Positions 16,355 through 59,768 of a DNA stretch of 64,000 bases are shown in pieces. The position numbers and the translations under genes are program-made. The notes under the pieces were generated by a model that ran no database searches, was not told the origin of the DNA, and saw nothing but the letters and a program-made list of their open reading frames with translations. Source of the DNA: Psammoneis japonica (Eukaryota). Position 1 is the first letter of the stretch. Every line of letters begins with the position of its first letter. The stretch covers positions 496,001 to 560,000 of the forward strand of contig QPGO01000020.1 of assembly GCA_008632985.1 (NCBI GenBank), read 5' to 3'.

Positions 16355-16520
16355 ACTGCACTTGTCAATTGATGTTTTGGCGATTTTGTCGCACGTACGA
16401 TCGGATGCGACAAATTTTGTCGGACGTGCGACAAATTTTGTCGCATCCGACAAACCCCGACAAACCCCGACAATGTACGACAAACGCCGACAAGAGCCGA
16501 CAAACGCCGACAGACGGACG
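16355..16520 (+). repeat. Left terminal/subterminal inverted repeat with palindromes (cgacaaattttgtcg) and ~10-bp cgacaaa repeats
   Basis: Read directly; reverse complement of ~22000-22220. Confidence 0.75.
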
Positions 16521-16778
16521 TTTGCGACACTGTCTCCACGAGATTCGCCCAGAGTGCGGCAGAGAGCTAGAGGCCCCAGCTGCCTGCTGATAAAAGGCAC
16601 AGCACAGCAGCGCACACCGGCACATTCCGCTCCACTGTGTAGAAGCGTGCGATGTTGTCCCGGTGTTGACGAGAGTGTGACATTCGGGGACATGGAACAA
16701 CAATGCAAAATTTCGAAATCAAAAAAATCTCATGCTCACACACTGCATGCAAATCAATCGTCTCGCATCTTCTGTTGT

Positions 16779-17741: not shown

Positions 17742-18354
17742 TTTTGGTTGGAGATCCAGTTGGATGACATTGTGAGATGATTCAAGTGTGCTCCTTGTGT
17801 GATCTGGCAAAATCATCGCTGAAGAGGACTCGCTTGTGTGCATGTGCTTGGACTCGCCAGTGCACTTGCATGCGTTAAAACGGCAGAGCTTCACTTTTTT
17901 GCTTTCAAACTTTCGTGGGAAGTCCAACAATGTCCCAACTCGCATTCCCACAATTGGGAAAAAAGCATCATGATGGATTGTCAGGAGGGTGATCGAATTA
18001 AAGTGTCAAAAGGGAAGTTTGAGAACAAGCTCGCAACCTGCACCAAGGTTTGTCCGCAGGCGTTGCCACTCAGGTTCGATGACAGGTCGTCACCTGACGA
18101 CACGTTCTCAAGCGTCAGCTCGTTCATTTGGACGAGAATGAAGAGCTCCAGGGTCTTCTCGATCAAATCAAGCAGCTTGGCATTTATGACAGAGGGGAAC
18201 AATTCAAACAGGACGTTACACACATTTGTTTGGGCGACAGACGACGACGAGCGACAAGGAAGAGCAAGGACTGGATGCGAGGAGTGACAAGGAAGAACGA
18301 GGAATGTGTGAGGAAGAACAAGGAACAGGAGCAGGTGATAAAGAGTGGTGTGTT

Positions 18355-18470
18355 CTGCTGCTGCTGCTGCTGCCAGCACTGCTGCCACTTGCGAGCACTC
18401 AAGGAACAGAACTGCTGCCACCACTGCTGCAACTGCCTGCTGCCACTGCCACTGCTGCCACCACTGCTTG
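18355..18470 (+). repeat. Mixed CTG/CCA trinucleotide tract (inferred ex-(CTA)n)
   Basis: ctgctgctgctgctgccagcactgctgcca...ctgctgccaccactgctg...ctgccactgccactgctgccaccactg. Confidence 0.8.
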
Positions 18471-18504
18471 CGGCACGGTGCAATGCCAATCAAGAAGCAC
18501 CGGG

Positions 18505-19658
18505 CTAAAACTGAACATTCGCGTTGGAGACCTGAATGTTGCTGGCACCCGCGGCCTTGGTGCCTCCTTCTTCGGCAATCAACCACCACTTGACGCATCC
18601 AGTAATGTCCTGCTTGATGCCTGCAGTTGCCTCTGTCCATTTAAGAAAGACTTCCTGGCCCCTGACGTTGGGTTTCGTCTGAGAAGATGCGTTGACCAGC
18701 TTGGTGCCACGTGGGAAAACCAACATCCAGCATTCACAGGGGTCTTGAGCGGATGCCTTGAGATTCGCATTGAGGTGAGCCTCCTTCGCGACGTCCTTTT
18801 GTGGCGGTGGTGGCAGAGTCTGCTTTTTGTTGGTTCCATCGTTCATCTTGTCATGAATTTGTTCAATGTCCTTGAGCTCAGAGCTCACAGCCGGCCCCTT
18901 GATGCATGCAACACGGCCATGAACACTCGACGGCACAGAATCCGCTCCTGGAATGAAAGCAACCCACTCGTTTCTGTCGAGAACAGAAACAACACGACGA
19001 ATCTCGAATCCCGACCTGTTGAAGGACTGGTGCGTGATCTTGTCAATGTGGACAACTTGAAAGCCACCGAGCCTGCAGTTGTCGAGACCCACAGGAACCC
19101 AATGGGGGTTTTCCAAAGAACCCAAATCAGTTTGAGCAATGAGGTTATCAACAATGGATGCTGACTTCGAGGGAGTCGTCAACACACGGCTGGCGCGACG
19201 AGGGGTCAAGCCAGCCATGCGCGACACATGAGCCACTCGAGGTGGAGACCACAACACGTCATCGTCGTCGTCATCATCACCCAAGTCCACCAATGAAATG
19301 CTGTCAACCATTTCATGAAGCTTCCTCGACTTTGTCCTCAGCTTTATGGTTGGCCTCCTCGGCCTCCTCGGCCTCCTTCATCAAGTGTTCCTCGAGCCTT
19401 GGAGGGTGTCGGCAGCTGGCTCCACCTCACACTTGTGCAACAGTTCGATGTAGGAGGTGATCTTGGACTTCTTGAAGTTGTCACTTGTTTCTGAAACCAA
19501 CGGTGTTTCTTCACATTGCCGTCCATTCATCCTCCTTTTCCGTAGAAACGAGGGTTCGAATCACAAATGTCCTTGAGTTTGGCTGCAAAGAGCCCGCCAT
19601 CGTGCTCAAGGTCCTGGACCAACTGCGCCCATTTCACGTTTTTCTTGACTTCCTCCAT
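18505..19658 (-). pseudogene. Frameshifted accessory ORF inside the transposon, function unknown
   Basis: Protein-like segments in consecutive frames (MEEVKKNVKWAQLVQDLE...; 268-aa ORF 18505..19311 with no Tyr). Confidence 0.45.
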
Positions 19659-20088
19659 GATTTTACATGAGCTGAGTGAAAGTGTAACATGACAAAAGAC
19701 CGTTGTGGCGTTTTGGGATTGATGTCGTTGGGTTTTTGAACTTAATGTCGTTGGGTTTTTGAACTGCGCAAAGAGAGAAATCATTCGCGGAAGAAAAATT
19801 CCAAGAATTTGAAGTTTCACTCCAAACGAAATTTGAAATTTTGAAATGTTAAAGTGCCCGTGTGAAGATTCACATTGAAATCATGGAAAGTTCTTAAAAA
19901 CCGACCAGGATTGGATTTGTAAAAATTTCAATGTCGTTGCGTCTGCACTGTCAGATTTGAATTGACCCCCACAGCGATCGACCGCAGCTGGGGTCTGCTA
20001 GCGAGAGCTGCTCCGTCCCAATCCGTTGCGACTCATGACTCACTCACAATGTCGTGCGCATGGCACAGGGCCTAATTTGTCTGCAACG

Positions 20089-20722
20089 ATGCCGAAACCA
20101 AAGAATTCTGAGTGTGTTGACTGGACAACTAGTGAGGCAAAGATGGTGCTATATGCCGATTTGCAGAGTGGCAGGTTGTCACTGAACGAGAGCGAAGTGA
20201 CGGCCGAAGAAGCATGGGAGCGTACAGAAACCATGCTGCATTCAAAGGCATCGTCATCTTTGAACAATTCAACCTGCGCCTGCGAGATCATCGTAAACAA
20301 ATTCTGTTGAAGAGAGAGAAATCGAATGATCAAATGAAGGCATTGATCCATGATCGACGGCTCTGTCCAAGGAAGGACGTGAACAACCGTGGCGAGCCGG
20401 TGTGGGACATTTCACCAGCAAAAGAACTCCTCAAACAAGACCTCTTGCAGAAGAAGCACTTGCACATGACACCATCCGAGCTTCGCGCCTCAAGACCAGA
20501 ATTCAAATCTTCTGCAAGACAAAGTTCAAGGAGCACATCCATCAAGCAGTCCGCAAGGAGAAATTCATAAACTGCCTGGAGCAAGTCCGCAAGAAGAAGG
20601 AGGAGAAGGCAAAACAAGACAAAGAGAAAGCAATGCAAGCGAGGATAGAGCTGCAGAGAAAGAAGGAAGAAGCTCGAGCAAAAGAGGAAGCAGAAAGAAA
20701 CGGCAAACGCAGATGCAACTAA
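20089..20722 (+). pseudogene. Frameshifted accessory ORF inside the transposon with an internal two-fold W..S.AK..L..DL motif
   Basis: DWTTSEAKMVLYADLQSG... and VWDISPAKELLKQDLLQK..MTPSELRASRPEF..FKEHIHQAVRKEKF across three frames. Confidence 0.5.
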
Positions 20723-20910
20723 AAGCAGCAGCATTGCCGCAGCAGCAGCAGTGGCAGTGGTGGCAGCAGCAGTGGCAGCAGCAGCAGCATCCATTCATTA
20801 GTTCTACAGTGGCAGCAGCAGCAGCACTAGAGCATTCTTTCCATTCCTTGTGGCAGCAGCAGCAGTGCAGCAGCGAGGAGCTCCTGGCAGCAGCAGAGGC
20901 AGCAGCAGTG
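20722..20910 (+). repeat. Mixed CAG/TGG trinucleotide tract (inferred ex-(TAG)n)
   Basis: cagcagcagcagtggcagtggtggcagcagcagtggcagcagcagcag. Confidence 0.85.
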
Positions 20911-21457
20911 GTCAAACTAAAAAGAGCACTTGCAGACAAGGCAGAAGCAGAGATTCTACAACAGTTAAGAAGTGGAGATTCTACAATGCCAAATTGTCAG
21001 TTCTGCTGCCAGACAAACAGTTGCAGTGCCGAAGACGACAAGTTGCCAACGGGAACGCCGTGCCCCCCCCCCTGGCTCTTTCAAGACAATTGTGACACCA
21101 TTGCTGCATCTCATTTCCCTCAAATGCAGCAACAGCACCACATCCCAAAGGCACCATAGAGTGTGCGAAGTGCAATGCTTTTGTCTTGGACAAACAAAAT
21201 GTCGCCAGAAACCACAGGAGGGAAGCACCCGTCACTGTCCCCATGAGAGTCGCAAGTTTCGAGGTGGAAAATCATTCCACCATCGCCCATCATAGTCTCC
21301 CCATCCCAGTCCATGCAAGGAAGAGCAGAGAGAATTCTGGGACTGCTGGCGAGCAAATCACCAAGCGAACATGCAATCAACACCACTGATGGGCAAACCA
21401 ACTCGGGAAATGACATGGGATCCCCAAACCGCACGTTCAATTCGTCCAACAGAAGTG

Positions 21458-21916
21458 TCAAACAGGAGCTGCGCAGCTCAACTGCTGAGCTGATGATTGA
21501 GCTTGGAACCCAATCTTCAAATGTGGTGTCACCGTCAGCGGCACGCATTGATAGAAATGGCAGAAATGCTCGGGATGGAGGAACGGCAGTCCGTTGTCGA
21601 TGAGCTGGTTAAATTCGCCAGTGTTGGCATGGAAACTCCGCATGAGGTCACACATGTCTTCAAGCAAGGAAAGGACCTCCATCCATCGCTTGATCATCAG
21701 TTTTTTTCCCACGCCAATGTTGTCTCGGAGATGCGGTCGGGTGCTTGCAAGGCGTTTCCACGCAACATGTGTTTCTCGACCAAGGCACCAGCGCACAGCC
21801 TCGAAACGCCCCAGACTCTTGACATCAAGGAATGTCAAGATGTGATCTTGCAGCATGCTGTTGTGGATGAAATGTTGGAGACCGCCGAGAGCGGCATGAT
21901 CGTCGCTTTGCATCAT
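21458..21916 (-). pseudogene. Possible F-box-like gene fragment carried within the transposon
   Basis: LQDHILTFLDVKSLGRFEAV....W resembles the F-box pattern (I.sFL....L.r...V.k.W). Confidence 0.35.
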
Positions 21917-21999
21917 CGTGCAAAAGAGACACAGTGTCAACGGAGACGTTGGCGGTTGCTGTGGCGTGTGCAGTGGGGGGGGTGGGTGTTTCGTTCGTG

Positions 22000-22220
22000 A
22001 GTCGTCGTGTCGTGACGTGACGTGACGTGTCGTGACGTGTCGTGTCGTGTCTTGTCGTGTCGTGTCGTGTCGTGTCTTGTCGTGTCTTGTCGTGTCTTGT
22101 CGGATGCGACAAAAATTTGTCGTATCCGACAAATTTTGTCGGATGAATTTTCGTCGATGACATCGATCGCCAAATTCTGTCAATTGCCCCACTTGTTGAA
22201 ACGACATCGCCAAAGTGCAG
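22000..22220 (-). repeat. Right terminal/subterminal inverted repeat: (gtcgt/gacgt/gtctt)n pentamer array plus cgacaaattttgtcg palindromes
   Basis: Read directly; mirrors 16355-16520. Confidence 0.75.
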
Positions 22221-22384
22221 GTTGGTTGTTAATGACATTGATCATTTTGTGACTTAGTTGAACAATGTTTCTGTCCCGTTTATCGCCAACCCGGACATTT
22301 TGTCGCAATTCGCGTCTTTTCGTGACAAATCATCAATTCATTTAAGAAATTGTCGCCAAATGCGACAAAATGCCGTGTGTCCCT

Positions 22385-23570
22385 GCGCATGTCTTTGGAA
22401 GCTGCCGCTGGTTGTTTGCCAGAGGTGAAATGCTGATGTGATGATTGCCTGTCAAAGCAGCCCGTGGCTCCGTCGGGGACACGCCACAATGTTGCCAGCA
22501 AACTCGCTTTGTGCATGTGCATGGAGTGCTTTTGCAGGTCCAACCATGGAGTGGCATCATGCATCACAGACATCGCCGCCCAGCCAACGCACTTTTTGAG
22601 TGCTTGTGCTGTTTGGGTGCTCTGGAGAGCCCCCCAGCTGCTGCATTTTTTGAAATGCATGCTGAGCACCTGCTGACATCCAAGACCAAGATGGTGTGCA
22701 TGACAGAGGGCAGCCTTTTTCATGAAGGGTTGTGAGGCAGCTCAGATCGCCACTTCAGTTGCTCTTTGAGCACTCTTTGAGCACTCTCTTTGAGCACCTT
22801 GCACACTCACACATCTGAGCTCCCAAGGCCTTCAATGAGCTGCATTCTCCATGCCCCACAGTGTTTGAAGATCTGCTTTGTTGCACTGGGGTTGCTGTGA
22901 TGGCCATCTTCTTGCTGAGTTGCCACACTTGACAGCTCGCGCTTTTTTCAGAGTTGACTTCCATTGTCATTTTGAGCAGATGCAAGACATGAACAGAAAA
23001 ATGCAACAGAGAGAAGCCATGATTCTGCAGTCATGTGTGCAGTTGCTGGTGATGTTGACAGGGCAGCAGCACTCTCACAGCTCTTGCCAATGTTGTGTGC
23101 AAAAAAGTGCAAAAAATGCCGAGTCAGATCAGCAAGGGTTTTGAGGCATGATGCAAAAAAAAAGCACGTGTGCCTCCAATCTTCATCCAGTCCAAACCAA
23201 AGCAGCAGACAATGATTTTGCACAACAGGCGTGTTTCTGCATTCAGTGTGATCAACCAGGCTTCTCTTCAAAGCTGCTCCAAGCATCTGACTCTCAGTGG
23301 AAGTGAGTCAACCTGCAAACTTCTTGTGATGCTCCTGCTCAAATGGCACACCGTGAGCTGTTTTTGGTTGCTCCACTTGATGTGCTTGCCAAGGAACATG
23401 AGAGTGGCCAGCAAATGCTCTTTTGCACAACTCAAGGGATTCTTCAAACTCTGATGGCTGGCCCATTGTATTAAAGTGATGGTGGCCGGCACACTGCTTT
23501 GCAGCAGTTTGACCCAAGAAGACAGCACTCTCCAAGACACGGCAGCCACTGCAGCCAATTGCAACACTTG
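22385..23570 (+). repeat. Dispersed repeat copy B (homologous to ~12355-13375), heavily depleted of both TpA and CpG
   Basis: Collinear shared blocks with copy A. Confidence 0.85.
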
Positions 23571-24668
23571 TGTTCACAGAGCTGCTGCCACAAGCCTGTG
23601 ACAACAACATGTGTGAGCCAAACAGTGAGCATTTCATGATTCCCCATGTGAGAGCCACTTTCTGCAAAGAATCACCTGCAGACAAGGGGCACAGCTTGTG
23701 CTCTCATGTCCTCACATGAAGCTGCTGGCTGTTTGGCACTTGTGTGACTGCCACAATTGTGCTCAAGAACCTGAGTCTGGACATGGAGATCAGGTGCTCT
23801 TGTCAATGACATGCAGCTGGCAACTCAGCCAGCTCTGCCAATGTGCACAGAACATCTGAGACAGCTGTTTTCAAATGTCTTCATCCAGCGACATTGCACG
23901 ATGGGCACTTCCCCAAAACTCCAGAGAAGGGTGGTGCCAACGCTGCTTCATTCAGAGGGTCCCAATCTTGCCTCTTTGTTGGCTTGTTGTGGTCATGGAC
24001 ATTTGACACCAGACATCCTCTTTGGACCATTGAAAGCTTTCTGACATGTGAGTTTGCTGCTTCGCTGTTCTTGTGGGCACACATGCGCCAGGCTCGTCAA
24101 GCTGTGACTTCTCCTGTCAACATTGTGGGTTTCTGCAAAATGGCACACAAAGGCAGCACATGATGAAAGAAGTGAGTTTTCTGTGCATCTCATCTTTGAT
24201 GAGTTGCTCAACATTCAACCTTGTTTTTTCTTCGTCTTCCTCATTTTCATTTTCATCTTCTCTTCCTTTTCTCAGCTTGGGCCACCTTGATTGACAGACA
24301 CTCTCCAGATGACCAGCTCACTCTTGCGACATAAATCCATCTTTAGAAAATGATGGCGACGGACAGTGGTGACCTTTCGACGGAATGCCGCTCTGCGGGC
24401 ATTCAACAGCTTCAGAGCAATGATGCAATGATGTCGTTGCTTTGCATGGCCTCGGAATTTTTTGTTTTTGATTTTTTTTCTTGTGGTACTGTGTGGTGTC
24501 TTTGGAAATCATTTTAAAGCTACGTCTCCGTAGGAGACATAATCGTATTCAATCTGTGTTGAAATGTACTTACGCCTATTTTACGTGCTTCTATACCATG
24601 AAGCCGGAATTGCGGGTTCCACGTTCTCTCAGAAATTTGTCAAGCAGCCAGCAGAACGGAGCCGCACC

Positions 24669-29672: not shown

Positions 29673-32600
29673 TAATAACATGCGAACACACTTGTTCTGT
29701 GCCGACTAAAAGTTACATTTAATCAGATACACTCTTCTCTCTTACCGTAGAGAGCAAGTGCAATAGTCGCTAGCAGGGTCCACTCGCTGGACTAGTTCTG
29801 CTGGAGCTCCAGGGAGATCCGTTCGTTTACCATGCAACGGACAGTTGTGATGGTTCGAGGAATGCGGCGTTTCGTTTCGTTTTCAGCCAGGAGGGTCCGC
29901 AAAGTTTGGAGATGAGGCGAGGATGGGGCAGACATACAAATAATGGAGGTGCGGCACTCGCTCTAATTAGATCGGGAACCTGTCCAAATTGAAACAGACG
30001 CAAGGACAAAAGTCCGGTTTCAACGGATTTCCGTTGACCACAATGCTTTTTCACTGGCCTTGAATGTTGCATTCATGTTGAGCAATGAAAACTTGCTCTC
30101 TTTGTGGCATGGTGTTTGCACAAAATGTGCAAGTCCACAACTTGCATTGCCAACATTCATCGTTGAACATGCACATTTCCCAGTTGCTCGCAACACGCCC
30201 AAACTGCAGCAGCACAAAGTGGTGCATGCCGCCGGGTGCCGCGATGTCTCAATGCGCCTTTTGCCGATTTTCCATTTTTGGCACACCTTTTGCCAATTTT
30301 TGGTTTTCTTGCTTCCTTTTTGATGACAAGCGCGCAAGTCATCCCACAAGCTTGGCCCCGCTGCGCGCCTGCAGGTTTGCGGGTTTGTCAAAAGTGCCCC
30401 AAAAAAATTGGCTGTGTGCCGCTGCCTCGACTCTCAGCAGCACTTTCGCCAGCCTTTTGCTGATTTTGCTGCCTGGGCAATGCTCCAACACACCCCGCAA
30501 GCTTTTTCCTTGCAGATCGCTTGCTTGGTTGCGCCCTGGTTGAGTGCCGAGCACTGAGTGGGTGAGCCACGCAACACCCCGCTGAACATGCACAGCACTC
30601 ACCTCTTGCTTTTCTTTGATCTGCGCCCATTGTGCTGCAGAAAACTCTGGAGCATGGAGCAGCTTCAGCGGCAGTCTGCAATCTGCTGCTGCTGGGAAGA
30701 GCAGCGCTGAGCCAAGACCGCTCTTCCGCGAGTGGCCAACCTGCCGCTTTTGGGAAGAGCAGCATTGCTGGGTGGTGAGCGCCAGCAACAAGCACAGCTG
30801 CGCTGCCACAAGCAGGTGGGGTGAGAACACCTGGCAGCTGAGTGGGCAGCACAGCCCTTTTTGGCATGCATCAAAAGACTTGCTCTGCACTCCAAACTCT
30901 TGGCCACATTCGCCCCCATTTCCAGCGCTGGCCTCTCTGCTTGCTGCATCTTTTCTGGGGTTTGCACTGCTCTGCACAGGCTGATGTGGAGTGCACTTGC
31001 TCTGGAGCAGATGGGTGGGGAAAGCAAGCTCTGCTTTGTTGTCATTTGGCCAGGTGCACCCTGCTGGCAACGGGGAAGGCATCCAAGTGTTTGTCTGCTG
31101 ACACCGCGCAGACGCTCTTGCTTGCCTGAGCAAACTTCCACTGCTGCTTGTTGAGTCCCGTCCCTTGGCAATGCTCAGCATGACATGAAAAGATTTGTCC
31201 ACACCGCATTTTCAACATCTCCTTTTCTCACCTTTTGCTCATCATTCTTTCTTCTTGCTCCAGAAGACACAGCATTTTGAAAAGGTTGGTGGCTGGCACA
31301 TGGAGCACAGCCGGGTGTGTGCACTTGCCAGGAAGCAGCTTGCCCACAAAGGGAAGGGCTGCAGCTGGCTCTTGGGGCAGGGGCAGAGCTCTGCACCATT
31401 TGTGCTGTTGGCATTGGAGGCATCTCCCGTCATCGTCAAAGCTGTGGCGCTCCTTGCTGAGCAACCCCGGTCTGTTGAGTTGAGCCTCTCAACTTTTTTT
31501 CAAGGCTTTGTTTGCTTCTTTCATTTTTGGCACAGTTTTGGCAATGTCCCCGGCTTGCTTGAGCTCCTTTCAACATGCCATGAAATGGGGTGCATTGTTG
31601 TGCATCACATCAATTTTTGGTCTCTTGCCATCAAAAATTTGACATTTCACCCCGCTGAATGCGTGGACAGCTGTCCGCTCATTCTGCTTGTTGGCTGTTG
31701 TCACTTTGACAGCTGGCGCAGCTCCAACAGAAAAAAATGATTTCTGTGGGTGGCTCAACCAGCTTGATGATGCCTCTTTTCTGATTGAGTTTTTTTGCAA
31801 TCCAGAAGGCTGGTGCAGGTGACTCTTGGTGCTTGGGTGCAGACTTTGGTGCCGCCAACTTTGTGTGCATCAACTGTCCTCAACACTTTGTCTTCTGGGC
31901 TGCTCTCTCAGGCAATGCCCTTGATGTCAAACTCCTCCCAACCATTTTTGAAGTCTGCAGTTGTCTCCCACTTTGAAGGTGGTGCTTCAAGCAGCTCTTC
32001 CCATGACACACTGACCTTCATTTCTTGCTCAACTTCCCAGCCACTGCAGCAGTTGGCACATTTTGTGGGCAGTCTGAAAACATGAACACTCATGTCATGG
32101 CTCCAATGGTGAACAAATTTATGCAACAAAGCAGCAACAAACCTGGGAGAGTGGCTGAAGGCCCAGAGCAGCTGTCTCACTTTTTGACAACATCCTTCAA
32201 GTGCAGTGGCTCCATGAAGGCACTTGAAAAGCGGGGCTCAGTGTGAGTCAGTGCCAACCTGAACACAGCATGACATGGAAGTGTGCCCCTTTTGTGTGTG
32301 ACAAAGCACCGCCTTGTGCAGGTTCCGTGCTTTCTGTTGAAACAGTGGCTTGCTGATCTTTGCATCAAGCACATTTGCAAGAAGATTTGCTGGCTTCATG
32401 AGCTCTCTCTCCAGCTCTTTTGGGCCCAGAACAATGCAACGGACCTGCGTTCAAAAAGAGTTCCAGGGCAATGTGTTGATTTTGTCTTTGCTGCAGGCAC
32501 TCTTTTGCAGTGCTTCCTCAACAACCTCAGTGATGTTCCCGCATGGGACAAAGAAAACATCAGATGATCGAGCCATGAACACTCCAAATGCACCATGGTT

Positions 32601-32699
32601 TTTTGACAGAACCTCCCTGAGCCAAGTGAGTGTGTGCCCAATGTCTTGTTTTGTGTGGAGACCATGCTGCAGCTGTGTTGGCTCATCTTCAACATTTGT

Positions 32700-34195
32700 G
32701 TCACACTTGTCCCCATCATCTCCATCTTGATTCTCAGCATCATGGGCTGCAGCTGGTGGGGAGCATCTTTGTCATCATTGCCATCATCATCTTGATCTGA
32801 TGCTCTCTCCTGTGCTCTTCTCATGTGTGCAGTGAACTCTGCCAGCACTTGTTGCTGTTTGGGTGCAAAGTGCAAGTTTCTGACTTCCCGCGTGACCCCT
32901 TTTGTGCACCATCTGCAATGGTGTCCTCAGTGCTTTGGTTTGACATTTTTGGCACAACTGCTGCAGGTTGCTTGGCTGTGTCCATTCAAACTTTGACAGC
33001 AGCATGATTGAAAAATGCCACGTGCAGATGCCGGCTCTGCTGCACCCAGAATTTGTTGGTTGTGCACAGCAACAATGAGTCATTTTCCTTTGGTTCCTTC
33101 ACATCTGGTGGTGGAGTGGCTCTTGGGTCCACAAAATGCATGGCAGTCATTTTCAAGCTCATTTTCAAGCATGACATCATTTGAGTGTGCAAGTCAGTGG
33201 CAGCGCGGCAAAACAGTGCTCCTCATCAACAGCAGCTTGCTCCAATCAAACAGTGTCACAGTCAGCTGTGCATGTTCACTCCCATCCAAAAGGAGCCATG
33301 GCTGTGTCATGAAGACCAGCTGTTGTTCTCTCCACAACACCTTGCTCCCTTTCAATCTGAGCCAGCTTCCTTTGTCTGCATCAACCTTGGAAGCCACTCT
33401 TGTCTTTGGCATTTGCACACACTCAGCCTTGTCATCTCCATCTTCATTCTTGATGTCAGGTGGCAGGGCTGCAGTGGGTGGAACATCTTCATCATCGTTG
33501 CTGTCATCTTGATTGGACACTCTCTCCTGCACTCTTCTTGCATGGCAGCACATGGTGAAATCTGCTGGTGTTTGTTGCTTTTCAGGTGCAGCTCAATCAA
33601 AAGTTTCTGGCTTCCCACACAACATCTTTGGCCCCATCTGCAACAACCACATCCTCAATGCTTTGACTCAACATTTTTGGCACAACAGCTGCAGGCCACT
33701 CAACTGCATTGATTCAAACTTTGATGGCAGAGTGCAGTCAATGGAAATGCCACAAGGAGCTGCTGACTCTGCTGCACCCAGAAAAGCAGCCTCTGCAGCT
33801 GCCACACAGAGACTTGTTGGCTGTGTGCAGCAAGAACAATGAGTCATTTTCCTTCAGCTCCTTTGTGTCTGGCAGTGGAATGGCTCTTGGATCCACAAAA
33901 TGTGCAAAAGCCATTTTCAAGCATGACATCATTTGAGCGCATGAGTCAATGGCAGCATGGCAACAGCTCTCATCATCAATGGTGGCTTGCCTCCAATCAA
34001 ACAGTTGCAGTTGGTTGTCTTTGTTTGCTCCACATCCAAAAAGAGCCTTGGCTGTGTCATGAAGACCAGCTGCTGCCCTCTCCTCCACAACACCTTGCTC
34101 CTTGACCATGTGCTGCAGGCATGTTGCATTGGCCAACAATGCTCCAGTCTGAGCCAGCTTCCTTTTGTCTGCATCAATCTTGGAAGCTGCTTTCT
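32700..34195 (+). repeat. Diverged tandem duplication (~32700-33410 and ~33420-34195)
   Basis: Shared acatttttggcacaac, ctctgctgcacccagaa, aacaatgagtcattttcctt, ttttcaagcatgacatcatttgag, ggctgtgtcatgaagaccagctg, tctgagccagcttcc. Confidence 0.88.
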
Positions 34196-35908
34196 TCATG
34201 AGTGCAGACTCCCCCAAGAGAAGCTTGAGTTCATCAAGCAATGGCAACGCAAAAATGCTGTTTTCCAAATCTGGTGCAGTCACTTGAGCAGTGGGGGGGG
34301 GGCACCCTTGGCCCTGACAGTCCACTTGGCATCAATTGACAATGCGCCCCAGTTGTTCTTGGCACATTTGATGAGGATGTCCTTGGAGGTGGCATCTGCA
34401 ACTTGCTCGGCAGAGAACGTGATCGGCAGCTTGAGAATGTCAAGACATGCAACAAATTTGAAACCTGTTCAAGGCTTCCTTGTTGGAGCCCATTTCACCT
34501 TGCTCTTTGTCAGCTGATGCCACACCACCCAAGAAAGCATGCTCCATTTCTTTTTCTGTTTCTGGAATGAAGGAATGGAGAATGGGCTCCTTGCCATTGC
34601 TGTTGTCTCCTTTGCAAAATGAGCACTCATCACAGCACATCTGTCTGCTGTGACAACATTTGGGCCTTCAAAGCCATGCACTTGACTCTGTTGGTCAAGG
34701 CCATGCAGGCTGTCCCCCACTTTCAATGGGGTTGTCCCCACAACAAGTCAGAGCATCAGCATCTGTCCAAACTCATTCATTGCCAAGTGCAGACCAACAA
34801 AACCTCTTGCACTCTCAGCCAGGAGAGCGACCTTTCCAGTTTTGACAAAATGGTCCCCAGACAGGAATGGGCCACCATTTGTTGTCATTTTGTGGTGACA
34901 GTGAGAAATGCTGGATTCAATTTCTAATGTTGTTGCTTCCAATGGACAGATCACAGATGGCACCTGCATTTCCACCCACTCATCATCAAAAGTCAAAATG
35001 CAAAGCTCAGTTTTTGATGTGACTCTCTTTCCCAACCAAGTTGTGAGCAAAACTGGCATGTCCTTGCCATGTCTTTGCTTTCACAGCATGTGTTGCTTGC
35101 ATCTCTCAGTCAGTGACTTGACAAGCCCAAACCTGCTCATGTGCCACATGACAGCTTAGATCTCATCTTGTCAGCAAGCACCCATTCTTTGATGGCACCT
35201 TCAGGGGCAATTTTGTGTCCATTTTGCTGCCACCAATTTTGAGCATGCTCAGGTGATTGTGACAAGAATGATGCAGAGTCATGACCACAGAATGTGCGGC
35301 TCTCTCTGTTGCTTGTGCAGCGGCTCTCCTTCTGCACTTGTGTGCACATGCACATGCCCAACACTGGCTTCATTTGGATGCTCCCCACATGCATGCCTGG
35401 CACAATCTGAGCATCCAAGATGGCTGACACACTCAGTTTCTCCAGGATGAAAAAGGCAGCAGGGCCTGCATTCTGGCCAAAACAGTGACCGCCAACAACC
35501 CCCCAGCCCAAAAAACATGATGGGTGGCAGCTCTGCAAAATCCTCACAAGAGAGTGGCATGGTGTGCTCTTTTTCCACATTTTCGTGTCCTGGACCAAAA
35601 TGAAAGTCATTTGCTGTGTCAGAAGACAAGCCAACCATTGAAGAGCAAAACATCTCTGATGCCAGCTTCCACATGGCTCATGTTTGCCATTCAGCTTGAA
35701 CCCAACATGCTTTTTGAGATGCTCTGACAACTTGTTGCACACTTTCAAGGTGTGTGTGCCATCTTTCACAAAAGGTCATTCCTGTCTTGTTGCGAAGCCT
35801 TTGCTGTTCCATTGGAAGCACAAGTTTCTGCTGCCCTGTTTCCATGGTGACTCCTGGCAGCAGCTGCAGCGCCAATGGCAAAACTGTTCTCCTCTGCTGT
35901 TTTCTTTG

Positions 35909-35973
35909 CTGCACTCATCATTCTTGCCACTGTGTTTTCTGCACTCATCATTCTTGCCACTGTGTTTTCTGCA
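35909..35973 (+). repeat. Perfect 30-bp tandem duplication (ctgcactcatcattcttgccactgtgtttt x2)
   Basis: Read directly. Confidence 0.9.
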
Positions 35974-37682
35974 AACCAGTTGTCCCTTCTTGTGGCTTCA
36001 TTTCTTGCAGAGTGTGGGTTGTCGACCACTGCACAGGACTTGAGCCTTGATTCATGTTTGTTGCCCAGATGCAAACAAGCACATCAAAGTTCAGAACATG
36101 GGCAGATTGCAAATTCATTTGTGTGCTCATTGCCTGGATTTGTCCAATGATGTTCTTAAAGTGCACACCAGTGGCAACCTTTGTTCACTGGCAACATTTC
36201 TGCAATGGCAACCCTGGTTCACGTGCGACATTTCTGCATTGCTCAGAATTTGACATCATCTGACCACTGTTCATTTGATTTTCTTTGTGTCAAAATGGAA
36301 ACAACACACTCAATGATTTGAGTTTTGGCCTCAAGTCAAACAACCTTTTTGGGTTGTGGGCTTGTCGTCATTCAGCCATGATCATGAAGTCTTTGCTGAC
36401 AAATGGACAAACTCACAGCTTGATTTTTTGCTTGTGTTCTGCAGCTGCTGCTTCTGTCAAACAAGATGCAAGAAAAGGCAGGTTGAGTCATCTCCAGATG
36501 CAGCAGAGTGGTGTGCAGGCACTGCAGCTCAGCTGCACAAGAGCTCTCAGCAAGCCACAGTTTTGAAAGCAAGGGTGCTTGCCATGGCCGCCACAATGCC
36601 AAAACTGTGTGTGCGATGATGAGAGCAGTGAGGTGGAGCAATGGAGCAGACAAAAGACAACATTGTTGAATGAAGCAAGAGAAAAAAGTGGTGGTCTGAA
36701 GAGCAGTGGTCAACAGAGTGAATGAGCTGGGAGAAGAATGAGCTCTCACACACAAAAATAAGATCCAACACTTCTGCACAAGTTGATCAAGTTTTGTGTG
36801 CACTTGCATGCTTTGGCAAAAGAACACAGAGTGCAGTGAAGAGCAGTTTTTGCCTTCGCCCTCCTCCTTGTTGTGTTTGTTGGTGCAGAGAAAAATCATG
36901 TGATCAATGGGCTCTTGCGGCAGAGCCTGTTGTTGGATGGGCTCAGGCAGTTGCTGCCAACTTCAGATCTGACAAGATTAAGAAGGTGGGCACACATTAG
37001 ATAACCCAGAAAACATTTCTTCACAATTATTCAAGCGTCACGGGCGTGCGGAAATTTGGAAGCAGGAAAAAGCATTAGATGCTTCTCCCGATGACGACGA
37101 CTAGTCAATCTTTTTGCTTGCCGATGTTACTTGCAAAAATTCCATTCGGTTCCGTTCCATGCTGGAGGAGTTTCTGCAAAGTCTCTGCAAGAATGATGAT
37201 GCTGGAGTAATGTAGATTGTGTGGCAATTCTCAACAGCGAACAAAACGAAGACTTGTTTTGCAGCGGAACGGTTCTTTACAAATTACTATGGCAATACAA
37301 GAATCGTACAGACTTATTAAGTGAGTGAGCTACCCCACTAGAGAGAGCATGGCTATATATTATATATTGTTGAAGCTCGGCATGATTTTTCATTACGTAC
37401 TCATTTCTCTTTGTGCCTTCGTTCCTACAAGATTTTTCTCGATAGTCCAAACGGTTGCGGTAGCTTGCACCAAGACGGGACCAAGGTGACTGATTTAGGA
37501 ATGCGTGTGCAATGGAAAATCGAACGGAAAACATTTGGTGAAACAGTGGCGACAAAACAAATCGGGCCTGACAATCCTACCTCGCATCGGTTGTGTCATT
37601 AGAAATACTTTAATTCCAAAATGCGAAAAGAAAGTTTTCAAGGGAGCAAGAGGCGAGTACGTATAAAACAAGCGCAAGACGA

Positions 37683-38913
37683 TCGATTTGTATTGGCAGT
37701 GTCCTTTCCAACTAGAACACCAAGACAACAACACATCCATTGCTGCCATTGAGATACTTCAGAATCTCGTACATTCCCGTGGACATGAAGCCAACCTCCG
37801 TTATCATGACGCAAGGCCTTGACAGCTGTTCTCCAACCGCCCTCTCTGCTCGGGAGTAGTCCAAGACTGACTCGATCAAACTTGTCGACCAGCTTATGCC
37901 GTCGAGCGATATGCCGACAATCCCCCACGTATACTGTTGCTCTATCCGCCACACCATTTTGTTGAAGGTTGTACTTTAGGGCAAACGCAGCATGTGGGTT
38001 CCACTCACAAGCAACAACGTGAGATGCCTTGCCCTTGATTAGGGCCGGAAGAGTATAATAACCAATACCAGCGTACATATCCAGCACCAAATCACCCTCT
38101 TGCACCAGTTCATTTCCAAATCGAATTTTCTCGGTGATATTGCCTCTGCTGAACATAACTCGCGTCAAATCAAAACTCTGTCGAATTCGCTGTTCCGTGA
38201 CTGTAATCCATCCCGGCGAACTGGGACCAACACAATCCGACGCGTCATCGACACTAGGCCAGAGTAAGACATGTCCACTCTCACGAATTGGACTGTTAGG
38301 GTCGACATCACCGCGGCGCACAACTCGGGGGCTGTCATACAGATTTGCCAACCGTCACAATATCTTAACCAGGGTCGTATTAACCCGAGGGTCGTCCCTG
38401 CCGTTGATTTTGGTACAGAACGCAATCAATGACAAGAATTCGCTGTCTCTTAAAAAAAAGGCACGTTGAGGTAGGACCAATGTTCTGTCGTCGCCCATAA
38501 GCTCAAGCTTTTTCGGACATGTGGAAACAGATAGCTTGCACATCGATCATTGTTTCCACCAGAGATTGCTGAGTTGTTGTCATTCCAGCATCGAAGCTAT
38601 GCAATACCGTCGTGGAATGCTACTTGCGGTTTCCCAACAGCGCCGTGCTGTCGCCCAGCGTTGCATCAAAGAGAATGCCAATTCAATAGAAACAGCTGTA
38701 ATGGCAATCAACCCAGAATAAGGTTGGGATAATTCGACTGAATCAGTATCGCTGTCGATCGAGATCCCAGGTCGTGGTGTCGACCTTTGTCATACGAAAG
38801 TCCTTACCGGTATGAAGCAAATCATGTTTCTCCAAAAAGATCTTGATCATTCGTTTGTCATTTTTGCGTTCGAAATACAAGACGCTTGGACGATTTGCCT
38901 GCTGATCTACCAT
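37683..38913 (-). pseudogene. TYW2: Inverted, internally deleted and 3'-truncated copy of the TYW2-like gene at 43746
   Basis: Near-identical to 43746-45059 in reverse complement; deletions/frameshifts in the 5' part; homology ends after KDTANTNR. Confidence 0.9.
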
Positions 38914-43745: not shown

Positions 43746-45308
43746 ATGATAGATCAGCAGGCAAATCGTCCAAGCGTCTTGTATGTCGAAAGCAAGAATG
43801 CCAAACGAATCAAGATCTTTCTGGAGAAACATGATTTGCTTCATAAGGACTTTCGTATGACAAAGATCGACACCACGACCTGGGATCTGGACAGCGATAC
43901 TGATCCAGCCGAATTATCAAAACGTTCTTCTGGGTTGATTGCTGTTCCAGTCGCATCTATTGAATCAGTATTCTCTGTGATAGAAGAGAATGCCGACTGC
44001 AAAAGCATAGTGGTTGCCACTGGGCGACAGGTTTGCCCGTACAGCACGGCGGTGTTGGGAAACCACAAGAAGCTTTCCACGACAGTAGTGCATAGCAGTG
44101 AGGCTGGAATGACAAGAACTCAGCAAGCGCTTATGGAGGCAATGCTCGATGTTCAAGCTAGGAACAACTCAAGCAAGCAAGATGATTTGATACAAAGAAT
44201 TACGAAGTTATCTGTTTCCACATGTCCTAAAAAGCTTGAGCTTCTGGGCGACGACAGAACATTGGTCCTACCTCAACGTGCCTTTTCTTTAAGAGACAGC
44301 GAATTCTTGTCATTGATTACGTTCTGTACCAAAATAAACGACAGGGACGACCCTCGGGTTGATGCGACCCTAACTGAGATATGGCGACAGTTGGCACATC
44401 TGTATGACAGCCCCCGAGTCGTGCGCCGCGGTGATATAGACCCTAATAGTCCAATTCGTGAGAGTGGGCATGTCTTACTCTGGCCTAGTGTCGATGACGC
44501 GTCGGATTGTTATGGTCCCAGTTCCCCTGGATGGATTACAGTCGCGGAACAGCGAATTCGACAGAGCTTTGATTTGACGCGAGTTATGTTCAGCAGAGGC
44601 AATATCACCGAGAAAATTCGATTTGGAAATGATCTGGTACAAGAGGGTGATTTGGTGCTGGATATGTACGCTGGTATTGGTTATTATACTCTTCCGGCCC
44701 TAATCAAGGGCAAGGCATCTCACGTTGTTGCTTGTGAGTGGAACCCACATGCTGCGTTTGCCCTAAAGTACAACCTTCAACAAAATGGTGTGGCGGATAG
44801 AGCAACAGTATACGTGGGGGATTGTCGGCATATCGCTCGACAACATGAGCTGGTCGACAAGTTTGATCGAGTCAGTCTTGGACTACTCCCGAGCAGCGAG
44901 GGCGGTTGGAGAACAGCTGTCAGGGCCTTGCGTCATGATACCGGAGGTTGGCTTCATGTCCACGGGAATGTACGAGATTCTGAAGTATCTCAATGGCAGC
45001 AATGGATGTGTTGTTGTCTTGGCGTTCTAGTTGGCAAGGACACTGCCAATCCAAATCGAGATGAGTGGATTATTCTTTGCAACCATGTTGAGAGGGTCAA
45101 GTCATACGCCCCCAAAATCCACCATTATGTAGCAGATATGTGGCTGGGACCGCCCAGAGAAGCTGTGAGAATAGACGCAGGTAACCACAAGCTATGGATC
45201 GCTCGAGATGGATGTTTTGTCCCTTGCCCCACTGAAGTCGAAAGCCCATCGTGTGCAATTAGTGCCTCCGGTGTATTGAACCAGAGTTGGATGATGGATT
45301 GCGGATAG
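43746..45308 (+). CDS. TYW2: tRNA wybutosine-synthesizing protein 2-like (Trm5/TYW2, Met-10+ family SAM-dependent transferase)
   Basis: GWITVAEQ.I..SFDLTRVMFSRGNITEK.R, VLDMYAGIGYYTLP, ACEWNPHA, DRVSLGLLPSSE.GW, GGWLHVHGNV, VKSYAP...HYVAD; the 5' end could have an upstream exon. Confidence 0.88.
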   Translation: MIDQQANRPSVLYVESKNAKRIKIFLEKHDLLHKDFRMTKIDTTTWDLDSDTDPAELSKRSSGLIAVPVASIESVFSVIEENADCKSIVVATGRQVCPYSTAVLGNHKKLSTTVVHSSEAGMTRTQQALMEAMLDVQARNNSSKQDDLIQRITKLSVSTCPKKLELLGDDRTLVLPQRAFSLRDSEFLSLITFCTKINDRDDPRVDATLTEIWRQLAHLYDSPRVVRRGDIDPNSPIRESGHVLLWPSVDDASDCYGPSSPGWITVAEQRIRQSFDLTRVMFSRGNITEKIRFGNDLVQEGDLVLDMYAGIGYYTLPALIKGKASHVVACEWNPHAAFALKYNLQQNGVADRATVYVGDCRHIARQHELVDKFDRVSLGLLPSSEGGWRTAVRALRHDTGGWLHVHGNVRDSEVSQWQQWMCCCLGVLVGKDTANPNRDEWIILCNHVERVKSYAPKIHHYVADMWLGPPREAVRIDAGNHKLWIARDGCFVPCPTEVESPSCAISASGVLNQSWMMDCG

Positions 45309-46099
45309 GTATGTTTTGCGTTCAATGCTTGGAATTCCCTGTCTAGCTAGATATCGGGCAGTTCAAGCTCGGCTCATTTGGGAAGTCTAGGTAGCTAGCC
45401 GCTCTGGTCGCCAGCTAGAGAGAGGGTAGCCCAATTGCCGGCGAGAGCTGCTACAGTAGGCTGGTGGAAAGAGCTAAAAGTTCTGTTGTACGAGCTCGTC
45501 GAATTCTTTTGCAAGAAAGCGCTCAACGCAGTCAAAGGGTATACTTCCAGTATTGGATCTAAGAAAGACCTTTTGACGTTGCTGGCTAATGTTAATATTG
45601 GAGAAGTTGTTTGTGCCGCTGACAAGATCGCTGGTATTGTGTTCTATCTTCTCTTCGCGTTGGAACCAAGAGAGCACCAGCAAGAAACATTGGCGGAGAA
45701 GAGCTTGAGGTACCAGGGGTTTCACGGTGTTGGCGGCGGTGGAAGTCCATCTTATCCCAACGATGCGCCAGTTCCAATTCGCAAAAGATCTAAACTCCAG
45801 CGGCTATTGCTAAATTGAAGAGCAGCGAAAATGACAAATCGAAGAAATGATGTGACGATATAACGGAAACTGCAAATCATTAGACCTTACAGGGGACTGT
45901 TGCCCGACAACTGCTGGCGTCATGCTAGCTAAGATAAAAGAGAATACCAGCATCTCATCTCTCTATTGTTTATAGTCCGTGTCAAATCTTTCAATTGGTC
46001 AGAGAAACTGCCTCCAGTGGAGCACAGATTGCTCACTACAACACACACTTTTTCACATTTACCCTCTCTTTCACATCATGCTAAGAATGAATCATCCTG

Positions 46100-48340
46100 C
46101 TTGACCCGCCGCCCCGCCCACGGACGCAGAGGTTGTGCTTCACGGTTGAAAGGCAGACAAACAAACAAACCATGTCGGCCGGCGCGTCCCTGACAGATGG
46201 AATGCAGTTTCAAGTGAATGAAGGCTCGTTGGGACTGCACTCACAACACCCTTGTTTGACCATTGTTCACCTCTGAGAAGTGGTCTTGGGCTTCTTTGTG
46301 GCAGAACAATTGTTCACCTCTGAGAAGTGGTCCTGGGCTTCTTTGTGGCAGGACAAAGGAGAGTTGATGAAGAGGAGGGCTGCTGGTGCTCTTTTTTTTG
46401 AGGAGGTGGTCAGTTTGTGCTCACAAAGCTGTGGCAAGGTGTGTGCACTGTGAGAAATTGAAAATGACACAGGGGAAAACAAACAGGTCATGAGATTTTT
46501 TCAAAATCACAGCAGTGCCCTTGGCCCTTGCAAACATGGCCCAGCAATTGTGTCGTGAGAGAGAAGCGCAAGATTCCAAGCAGCCAAATCAGCCTTGCCC
46601 TTGCATTTGGACAAATCTTTTCACCATCAATTCTGACCTGTCTGGTGATGCTGGCTGTGACACCTTTGTGATTGCTGCTGCACATCCAGACATGCAAGCC
46701 CACTCTGTCAAGAGCTGCAACAGTTGAGCCTCTGGGGCAGAACACGCCTCTGTGCCCTCTGTTGTCATCCGCAGCATCCAGTGCATGACACTCACATGCA
46801 AACCCTAACTTGGCTGAGTCTGCCAAGATCCACTGCTTCCTTTGGATGTTGCTGACAACTGCACCTTTTTGCTTGGTTTGGTGTCATCCAATGTTGTCTC
46901 ACTGACAAAATGCACTTCCTGTTGCCGAACAAACCTGACAGCACACCACACACCCCAGGTGGCCTTGTGACCCAAACATTCAACACCTGAGGCTGGCACA
47001 ATGACAGAATCTGTTGCCAGTGCTCCCTCCTTGCTGGACAAGTCAGACTTGCCACCAACATTTGCTCCACACTGGACAACTTCTGTGAACTGCACACCAC
47101 AGAACAAAGGGCAAGTTTACCCTCCCCCCTGGGCCCACCACCATGCCAGCATGCCAAGCCCACTTCAGGCACTCCAATGCAAGCTGAAGCCATCCAAGCA
47201 AACTGCCCTGAGCTGAACAGACAATGCTGGCACCCTCTGTTGCAAAAGCAAGCAATCTGCCACCACTGGTGTCATCAAGCAAGCTCCTGAGCTCCTGCAC
47301 TTCCAAGCAACATCCCCAGCACTCCTTCTGTTGGCTGCTGCCTGTTGCAGCATGATGGCTGCCTGGCACCAGGGCCCGCTGACACTGTCATCAATGATGC
47401 ACCCCAACTTCAGCCATTGTGCGATGTTGCCTTTTTGCATGATTTTCACAATCATTGTCTGCCGGCTCTGTCCAACATCACAACTTTCTCTGCATTGCAC
47501 AAAATGCCATTGCCCATGGAGTTGCCTCTTCTGCTGCCTCCTCCTCTGGCACACGCTGCACACCAACATTTTCTTGGTGCTTGGACCTGCCAACCTTGGG
47601 CCAGCACCCCCGCCAGGCCAACTTTGCATTTGGCTCTTTGGCCATGAGACCAACATCAATTTAACAAAATGCTCTGCTGCTTGCACCTTCAGGTGGAGCC
47701 AGCTGTGTGCAAGAACTTTGCTTGCTGCATCCTCGTTGGCGGCAGTTTTGCTTTTCTCCCCAATGCCCAGGTTCCGCCCACCACCAAGCCAAGAGCCTCC
47801 TCTCAACCATCATGTGTGTCTCAGCACTGCTGTGCTGGTGTGTGCCTTGCACTGCAGTGCATGTGCGTGTCACTGGAGCAGCCACACCACTCTAGATTTG
47901 GAGTGGAAAGGGACCAGCATTGTCAGCAAAGTCTTTCCATCCTTGCAATCTCAGCTCCCAAAGATTGTTTGCATGCCCAGATCAGAGCTGCAAGAGGTTG
48001 AACAAAGTGAAGCCAGTTTCTGGCCTCATCAAGACACCAGACAAAGGGAGATGCTTCTCATTGCCAGTTGAGCTTGCAGCCCCTGGCACCCCCCTCATCA
48101 CCAATTGACTGTGAGAGCAAGTTGGAAAACCAGCGCTGTCACTGCTCTCTCTCTCCTCTCTCTCTCTCACTCTTCTTTGGAAAAGCTTCTGAGCAGCAAG
48201 AAAGTCCAGCGGACAGGCCAAAAGTGCTCCCACCTCCTCTCACTCCCTCTGGCCATGCCATTCCAGCATGGGAATGGAAAGGGACCAACCACGTCAGCAA
48301 AGTCTTCCCATCCCTGCAAGCTCAGTTTCCTTGCGTGCAA
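46100..48340. other. TpA- and CpG-depleted decayed repeat block, with a 47-bp tandem repeat (46262-46356) and ~60-bp direct repeats (~47898 and ~48270)
   Basis: Composition and repeats read directly. Confidence 0.75.
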
Positions 48341-48760
48341 TTTCTACTCTCGCCACTGCTCTAGAGAGACCCAGATCACGGAAGAGGTCGAACGGTGGCA
48401 AACACGAAAGCGACGCCATTCGCTTTAAATGACTTCTTGAAACGCGCACTCATGCCGGTAATCCAACCCACACATCATCGCGAAGCAGCGCTGTCGCGCG
48501 TTCCACCCCGCCACTCCGCCCCGCCCATGCCAAGCAACAAAGATAGGCCCTACAGATCTCGAATCATCATCGCATTCATCGCATCTCGTCGATAAATTAC
48601 ACCCCGCTCATGTCATTGATTTGACGACGGGTAAACAACACTGACGGCGCAAAACTACCCTCCTGGCTGAGGCTGATCGACCGTCAATGCTTGCCGTAAA
48701 GATTGAAAACAGGCTGCTGGTTCAGAAGAGATATCTGGTGAAGGTACAAGCACCAACAAC

Positions 48761-59760: not shown

Positions 59761-59768
59761 TCACCCCG

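Follow-up and report, generated by a model that had tools for sequence, protein, structure and literature searches.

A 64,000-nucleotide stretch of the genome of Psammoneis japonica (GenBank assembly GCA_008632985.1, contig QPGO01000020.1, positions 496,001 to 560,000 of the forward strand), referred to here as the window and numbered from its first letter, carries blocks of DNA from which the dinucleotide TpA has been nearly erased, and some of these blocks have lost most of their CpG as well. Our analysis indicates that the loss of TpA is a targeted hypermutation of the type reported in the chlorarachniophyte B. natans, here in a diatom and at saturation, and that the loss of CpG is a separate and slower layer. 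We consider it probable (roughly 0.75) that the blocks, which lie in the nuclear genome of a raphid pennate diatom, consist of defunct mobile elements, a defunct host-gene copy and remnants past recognition, all shaped by two separable transition processes acting on DNA.

The depletion itself was confirmed. At a G+C content of 49% for the whole window, the ratio of observed to expected (o/e) TA, taken in 1-kb steps, is 0.35-0.82 in ordinary sequence and drops as low as 0.00-0.05 elsewhere, in stretches where CA and TG rise to 1.7-2.0. Depleted 500-bp intervals, defined by at most 5 TA, numbered 49 of 128, which corresponds to 38% of the window. The two longest TA-free runs measure 2805 bp (32120-34925) and 2152 bp (29968-32120); the longest TA-free gap in the 28.4 kb of background is 235 bp, and the probability of 2805 bp without TA is about 1e-49. 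The block borders are sharp to within 250 bp and the genes flanking the blocks are not hypermutated. Moreover, the sum of TA, CG, TG and CA is conserved: background has 242 per kb, the block with the Copia element 227 and the other six of the seven blocks 235-246. The extra TG and CA therefore make up for the TA and CG that were lost.

The blocks fall into two classes, as the original prediction had proposed, one poor in TpA only (blocks D and E in Table 1) and one poor in both TpA and CpG (blocks A, B, C and C2). The CG counts of the 49 depleted intervals are bimodal, with 18 intervals at 0-8 and the others mostly at 12-44, and at most 8 CG together with more than 5 TA was found in only three intervals, all inside depleted blocks; CpG depletion is nested within TpA depletion. 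The three blocks first listed as poor in both dinucleotides were recovered, with the corrections that a fourth (C2) had been missed and that the left end of block A (29968-30750) is TA-free yet keeps its CG. Likewise, the assignment of 13500-22300 and 55820-64000 to the CG-keeping class holds for the former and, in the latter, as far as position 60000, the remaining 4 kb being intermediate.

Table 1. Features of the window, with o/e ratios of TA and CG; where a ratio was taken over other limits, these are given in brackets.
Feature	Position	Strand	TA o/e	CG o/e	Description
Background, three stretches			0.56-0.61	0.97-1.00	
Paralogue of the left part of block B	12381-13237	+			Little mutated, TA and CG normal; reference for polarising block B
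Block D	13500-22300		0.15	0.80	TA-depleted, CpG kept; composite of host-gene pseudogene and DNA transposon
cpn60/GroEL pseudogene (diatom nuclear gene)	13923-15820	-			Frameshifts, one stop
PIF/Harbinger transposase (DDE_Tnp_4)	16722-18005	-			Open 428-codon frame, no tyrosine
Block B	22400-24330		0.02	0.22	TA- and CpG-poor; left part (22434-23343) is a copy of 12381-13237
Block C2	26750-28050		0.06	0.23	TA- and CpG-poor, between two paralogous genes
Block A	29968-36970		0.01 (30020-36970)	0.21 (30020-36970)	TA-free, CpG-poor end-state DNA; 5 TA in 6951 bp (0.7 per kb); CA o/e 1.93, TG o/e 1.77
Internal tandem duplication of block A	32682-33412 and 33399-34205	+			
Block C	46082-48345		0.03 (46200-48300)	0.13 (46200-48300)	TA- and CpG-poor
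Block E	55820-60000		0.11	0.80	TA-depleted, CpG kept; no Pfam family
Ty1/Copia retrotransposon	60083-64000	+	0.18 (60001-64000)	0.46 (60001-64000)	gag, protease, integrase and start of reverse transcriptase; ends at the window edge

The direction of the change was polarised by outgroups at coding sequences inside the blocks. The Copia frame matches RVT_2 and shows 45-62% identity to diatom and metagenome polyproteins among the 120 matches listed; its tyrosine content is 0.61% against a median of 4.08% in these relatives, and cysteine and histidine are raised by a similar amount. At the 38 columns in which tyrosine occurs in at least 70% of 30 relatives, only 5 tyrosines are kept, 18 having been replaced by cysteine (TGY codons) and 10 by histidine (CAY), and 491 of the 589 other conserved columns are intact; at conserved arginine columns, CGN codons have changed to His, Trp or Gln in 5 of 35. 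The Harbinger frame, for which 1191 relatives were found (with DDE_Tnp_4 in eight of the ten examined), has 0% tyrosine against their median of 3.4%, and none of its five conserved tyrosine columns is kept (2 His, 2 Cys, 1 Ala). Both frames are longer than the open reading frames (ORFs) of all 200 simulations. The cpn60 pseudogene is colinear with residues 7-591 of diatom cpn60, its last 73 residues being 82-85% identical, and it keeps none of the 6-10 tyrosines of four reference proteins, most of which now read as cysteine or histidine. Tyrosine codons have thus moved from TAY to TGY or CAY in Copia (28/38), Harbinger (4/5) and cpn60, and the change is from TA to TG or CA, that is, A-to-G and T-to-C transitions at TpA on both strands. 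Besides, four relatives in other public records, one of Copia and three of Harbinger (P0222, P0396, P0455 and P0500), have only 0-0.4% tyrosine and carry cysteine or histidine at conserved tyrosine columns, where control relatives keep tyrosine (5/5 and 23/25), which indicates that the footprint is not confined to this assembly.

Duplicated sequences were also informative. The left part of block B and its paralogue form a pair of direct repeats of about 0.9 kb on either side of block D; the pair is old, as judged from 15% transversions, and no significant extension was found past its ends (score 67 against 52 +/- 9 for shuffled sequence). Opposite the 25 aligned TA sites of the paralogue, block B has TG at 8, CA at 8, other dinucleotides at 9 and TA at none, and opposite the 51 CG sites it has TG at 12, CA at 16, CG at 6 and other dinucleotides at 17. 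Inside block A, the two tandem copies share about 70-74% of their nucleotides (74% in global alignment) as against 88-90% of their purine/pyrimidine classes, and differ at 143 transitions and 44 transversions. TG stands opposite CA at 43 sites, beside 101 concordant ones (49 TG/TG and 52 CA/CA), as would be expected if each copy had independently resolved an ancestral TA or CG; in an unmutated duplicate of a methyltransferase-like gene (37683-38913 and 43746-45059), TG faces CA at 2 of 168 such sites and neither TA nor CG is lost. The tandem copies of block A were hypermutated independently, after their duplication.

The affected DNA comprises the Copia and Harbinger elements and also a pseudogene of the host cpn60 gene, in which a 126-nt insert (about 15232-15357) is probably an intron remnant, with GCACGG now standing where its 5' splice site would have been GTACGG. 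The TA-poor blocks are enriched in CA and TG alike, and changes on the Copia sense strand include A-to-G (Tyr to Cys) as well as T-to-C (Tyr to His). No strand-coherent tracts of TG or CA were found within the blocks, in which their order is random (runs-test z from -1.4 to +1.9). Since a DNA transposon, a pseudogene with an intron remnant and both strands are affected, the process is therefore one at the level of DNA and not RNA editing.

The idea that TpA is lost by passive decay was not borne out; the data indicate a targeted transition process with the motif 5'-TAY-3' (Y, pyrimidine; R below, purine). The 149 TA that survive in block D, block E and Copia differ in their flanks from 1117 background TA (chi-square p = 2e-25), the rarest surviving contexts being ATAC/GTAT, ATAT and GTAC and the commonest TTAA, CTAA/TTAG and CTAG. 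Survival was expressed relative to background density and classed by the number of strands on which a site reads 5'-TAY-3'; for zero, one and two strands it was 0.72, 0.19 and 0.044 in block D, 0.52, 0.16 and 0.019 in block E, and 0.96, 0.23 and 0.039 in Copia. RTAY sites are thus lost fastest, sites with the motif on one strand at an intermediate pace and YTAR sites slowest, and survival at two-strand sites is approximately the square of that at one-strand sites, as predicted by independent attack on each strand. In the anticodon loop on which TadA/ADAT enzymes act, the adenine that they target stands within U-A-C.

The expectation that TpA loss is faster or earlier than CpG loss fits these data. 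Random conversion of TA alone, simulated on background sequence, matched blocks D and E for each of the ten strand-symmetric dinucleotide classes and yielded a CG o/e of 0.84-0.85. The value of about 0.80 in these blocks is therefore largely arithmetic, because G and C become more frequent (G+C 0.50-0.52 in the TpA-only blocks against 0.48 in background), and CpG is nearly untouched there. Blocks D and E contain 8.7 and 6.7 TA per kb (about 7-11 with Copia included) and 52.0 and 50.2 CG per kb, or 89-92% of the 56.7 of background. With background as the starting point, loss on a log scale is about 15 times as large for TA as for CpG (1.51 against 0.087 in block D, 1.77 against 0.12 in block E).

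The blocks poor in both dinucleotides, which have lost about 80% of their CpG, show further features. Compared with a simple conversion of TA and CG, they hold more GpC (86 against 60 per kb) and ApG/CpT (141 against 121) and less ApT (49 against 65) and GpA/TpC (114 against 135), and the surviving CpG are enriched in GCGC and CCGC and depleted in TCGA. When a weak rate of non-T ApY to GpY was added (about 1/60 of that at TAY, TAR and CpG being set to 1/10), the simulated profile fitted better, its misfit dropping from 12.2 to 4.8 per kb. Such an ApY drift would have the same 3' preference as was found independently in the TpA-only blocks, and it is weakly supported by the old paralogue pair of block B, in which A-to-G changes occur before C at 22/93 sites and before A at 7/105, context rates that are too noisy to prove the rule. 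Taken together, the loss of YTAR, the ApY drift and the lack of any coding remnant indicate more exposure or greater age, independent of CpG. On the YTAR scale this exposure would be at least 4-8 times that of the TpA-only blocks, with a CpG loss 12-17 times greater. In block A, which has 0.7 TA per kb beside 229 CA+TG (and 12.8 CG) per kb, the removal of TA would, if the block were at equilibrium, be about 300 times faster than its recreation by ordinary transitions.

The explanation that we favour has two parts. In the first process, TpA would be converted to TpG or CpA site by site on either strand, with 5'-TAY-3' as the target, most likely because a TadA/ADAT2-like enzyme, aimed at silenced or foreign chromatin, deaminates adenine in DNA to hypoxanthine. 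The second would be the ordinary transition of CpG to TpG or CpA expected of 5-methylcytosine (5mC), slower by at least an order of magnitude. TpA-only blocks would have undergone moderate exposure, having lost about 80% of their TA, largely kept YTAR and left CpG intact. TpA+CpG blocks would have undergone several-fold more, reaching a floor of about 1 TA per kb with YTAR gone and about 80% of CpG lost, while the weaker A-to-G drift at ApY would have enriched GpC and every pyrimidine-purine step would have ended as CA or TG.

A process of this type has been described in mutation-accumulation lines of B. natans, in which 231 de novo mutations in two integrated viral regions all fell at TpA and were nearly all A-to-G or T-to-C, at about 6e-7 per site per generation, a 1000-fold excess that was active only in some lines (bioRxiv 10.64898/2026.01.13.699255). 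As presented in that preprint, Mettrop et al. propose an ADAT2-like DNA adenine deaminase and find clusters low in TpA and high in CpA+TpG that are enriched for DDE and reverse-transcriptase domains. The blocks described here resemble the giant-virus and virophage DNA of B. natans in the conversion of TpA to TpG/CpA, on both strands, in regional blocks of DNA that includes non-host or transposon-like sequence. The differences are that the host is a diatom (a stramenopile) and not a rhizarian, that the targets are transposons and a host pseudogene, and that TA o/e is 0.01 over 7 kb against 0.45 in the B. natans viral region, the rate having been measured there and the end result being seen here. 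The approximately 300-fold removal estimated for block A is similar in order of magnitude to this 1000-fold excess. Neither the TAY rule nor the square law for the two strands nor the CpG layer appears in the main text of the B. natans preprint, and full-text literature searches for such a footprint in diatoms gave only that preprint and papers on fungal repeat-induced point mutation (RIP).

Several points weigh against our explanation. Because TA is its own reverse complement, T-to-C at TpA is indistinguishable from A-to-G on the opposite strand, and a chemistry directed at thymine would be possible. That 5mC underlies the CpG loss, that a deaminase is at work and how targets are chosen are steps that we infer. 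Background, which is mostly genes, stands in for the ancestors of the blocks, and the single public run that contains block A may be the source sample of the window. The YTAR survival of 0.07-0.26 in blocks A, B, C and C2 counts only 1-3 sites per block, and the ApY drift was fitted post hoc, with one parameter left free. A YTAR clock of constant rate underpredicts the CpG loss of these blocks 2-3 times, which is within uncertainty, and their remaining YTAR sites may be new. Moreover, Copia has lost TA to the same degree as blocks D and E but far more CpG, and the first 750 bp of block A are without TA yet keep most CpG, and a single time axis therefore misfits some regions.

For the same reasons, the proposal that the two ratios could date repeats is not safe. 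In 42 public metagenome loci with relatives of the Copia element, CG o/e ranges from 0.23 to 1.37 and is below 0.5 in 19, TA o/e is 0.52-0.80 and none is TA-poor, in a scan that was seeded by two peptide patterns, one requiring Tyr or Trp, and was thus biased against hypermutated copies; this range of CG at normal TA means that low CG can be inherited. One group of the loci (L024-L042) holds degraded relatives with a G+C of 35-39%, CG o/e of 0.23-0.46 and normal TA, which represents CpG decay without TpA hypermutation in other hosts. A scan of viral contigs found no Copia relatives. Dating from both ratios needs methylation data and a transversion clock.

One alternative, which overlaps with our explanation and which we hold to be somewhat unlikely, is that the two tiers reflect methylation state and not age. 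All blocks would then undergo the TpA process, only those methylated at CpG would lose CpG, and the TpA-only blocks may be as old as the others. CpG loss is indeed graded inside the contiguous TA-free block A, from 10-12 CG per 250 bp over the first 750 bp or so at its left end to 0-4 further on, which points to local methylation and not to age alone. In diatoms, methylation falls mainly on transposable elements and requires DNMT5a (PMC9998398). Contigs of the public run (word depth about 60, up to 315 kb) cover block A in TA-free form, and the differences between window and contigs are rich in CpG transitions: 7 CpG<->TpG/CpA changes, one CA/TA and one double CA/TG change among the 22 differences listed, with 66 more. 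The CA/TA and CA/TG differences may hint at change at TpA that is still going on. CpG accordingly seems still to be unstable in block A. The likeness to 5mC decay also lies in the CG sites that match TG/CA and in a loss confined to transposon-like DNA; the difference is that in this window it is seen only on top of TpA hypermutation. Methylation state would, however, leave unexplained that the TpA+CpG blocks also lose YTAR more fully, show the ApY drift and have no coding remnant.

A process like fungal RIP, in which duplication triggers the mutation of any duplicated DNA, is improbable. RIP is similar in that one class of transition in a dinucleotide context riddles repeats, kills transposons and leaves a recognisable footprint. 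Here the affected DNA includes a host-gene duplicate (the cpn60 pseudogene) beside transposons, and diatoms carry DNMT4 enzymes related to fungal RID (PMC9998398). However, the direction is reversed, since RIP changes C to T mostly at CpA, creating TpA and lowering GC, whereas the blocks described here lose TpA and gain GC. The methyltransferase-like duplicate, an inverted, partial copy of 1.2 kb at about 5 kb distance with 93% identity, was left untouched, which would argue against a purely duplication-triggered process, depending on when that copy arose, and the hypermutated viral region of B. natans is single copy according to the preprint (bioRxiv 10.64898/2026.01.13.699255).

Thymine could instead be the mutated base, T in TpA being modified or oxidised and then turned into C by mispairing or error-prone repair. 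The sequence would look the same, the TAY rule becoming RTA for thymine, and we nevertheless find this reading quite improbable. To our knowledge, no pathway that mutates thymine in such a way exists, adenine deamination directly predicts A-to-G, and TadA/ADAT enzymes naturally act on an A that has a 5' U or T beside it (bioRxiv 10.64898/2026.01.13.699255). Very little likelihood can be given to a single deaminase that attacks both A in TpA and C in CpG, so that the tiers would be one process. Deamination of A as well as C is reported for the ADAT2 homologues of Trypanosoma and amphioxus, according to work cited in bioRxiv 10.64898/2026.01.13.699255, but blocks D and E have lost about 80% of TA with CpG at 89-92% of background, as in the TA-only simulation, and CpG-poor Copia relatives with normal TA exist elsewhere.

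The two remaining alternatives are scarcely credible. Editing of RNA, or of cDNA during reverse transcription, would suit a Copia retrotransposon, the 5' U favoured by ADAR (bioRxiv 10.64898/2026.01.13.699255) and the inactivation of mobile elements in animals by deaminases with neighbour-base preference, but ADAR and APOBEC3 act on RNA or cDNA, the latter strand-asymmetrically, and here a DNA transposon and a genomic pseudogene are equally affected, both Tyr-to-Cys (18) and Tyr-to-His (10) changes lie on the Copia sense strand and the CA/TG excess is symmetric. An artefact, in which modified bases in repeats are misread and the DNA really has TA and CG, would also mix TG and CA through strand-random miscalls, and the only run with block A may be the source sample, but the contigs of that very run show the same lack of TA, with 9 letters differing over a piece of 3017 bp, other public records contain relatives of both transposon proteins that lack Tyr and are rich in Cys and His, and TAY-dependent survival with its square law is hard to obtain by miscalling.

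The claim that the end state cannot be recognised by homology stands for ordinary searches. None of 52 ORFs from the TA- and CpG-poor blocks passed the curated Pfam cut-offs, tblastn with ten Copia polyproteins gave matches only at 60-64 kb and none in these blocks, and five long ORFs of blocks D and E yielded no credible Pfam family even at E up to 5. It does not stand once the sequence is recoded as purines and pyrimidines, which restores alignments and lifted one repeat pair from 64.5% to 78.7% identity. Moreover, TA-free DNA carries many overlapping ORFs of 200-300 codons on both strands, such as 30342-31211 (-) and 47217-48068 (+), because TGA is the sole stop codon left; these are no longer than chance, the longest ORFs of blocks A (290 aa), B, C and C2 being reached in 36, 164, 9 and 89 of 200 Markov simulations of the same composition. 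Ordinary repeat finders returned only the internal duplication, one short recurring motif and small tandem arrays, and no terminal repeats were found for block A in a purine/pyrimidine-recoded self-comparison (best inverted match 60, control 106). A 26-nt motif with CATTTTTGGCACA occurs four times (30268, 31517, 32939 and 33667, at spacings of 1249, 1422 and 728 bp), which suggests that block A descends from an array of a unit of about 0.7-1.4 kb. No RNA runs were listed with block A, and a second run of the same sample gave contigs over the flanking genes and none over 29835-37174, which is no evidence on expression.

Other features of the window were recorded. The first 800 bp are probably the edge of a further hypermutated block cut at the window start, the first kilobase being partly depleted (TA o/e 0.23, CG o/e 0.54, TA-free run 80-508). 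A long ORF follows at 804-3050 (+), with internal repeats of a proline/valine/aspartate-rich unit (1452-1750 against 1947-2455, 79-92% identical). Within block D, 20470-21159 is a CAG/GCA-rich low-complexity segment (poly-Gln in translation) with 1-7 CG per 250 bp and high CA. The genes that flank block C2 (24543-26223 and 28293-29672) are paralogues encoding Cys-rich, acidic, membrane-anchored proteins, with 77% purine/pyrimidine identity over about 700 bp. A multicopper oxidase gene is closest to those of raphid pennate diatoms, with 71% identity to Fistulifera solaris, 66% to Seminavis robusta and 79% to the best match.

The process has so far been reported in only one other alga, and if it is general in diatoms, a recently described genome defence would extend to a major algal group. 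As transformation and gene editing work in some diatoms, experiments could find the enzyme and its mode of targeting, and the TAY rule with independent attack on each strand narrows the search to TadA/ADAT-like deaminases. Ordinary similarity searches miss hypermutated transposons, whose alignments can be restored by purine/pyrimidine recoding or transversion-only scoring, and the spurious ORFs of TA-free DNA are a trap for gene prediction. With 38% of the 500-bp intervals affected, the share of transposon remnants in diatom genomes may be underestimated.

A wider reading, which we put forward tentatively and believe to have less than an even chance, is that diatoms run a standing defence by DNA adenine deamination, specific for 5'-TAY-3', which drives all silenced DNA (transposons, pseudogenes and perhaps viral inserts) to a stationary state that is TA-free and CpG-poor and has only CA or TG at pyrimidine-purine steps. 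If so, much of the intergenic DNA of diatoms that cannot be annotated would consist of end-state remnants recoverable by purine/pyrimidine recoding, and the nested loss of TAY, then TAR, then CpG together with ApY would provide a multi-speed clock of insertions. A system shared by a rhizarian and a stramenopile would, moreover, point to an old and widespread genome defence of the SAR (stramenopile, alveolate and rhizarian) lineages.

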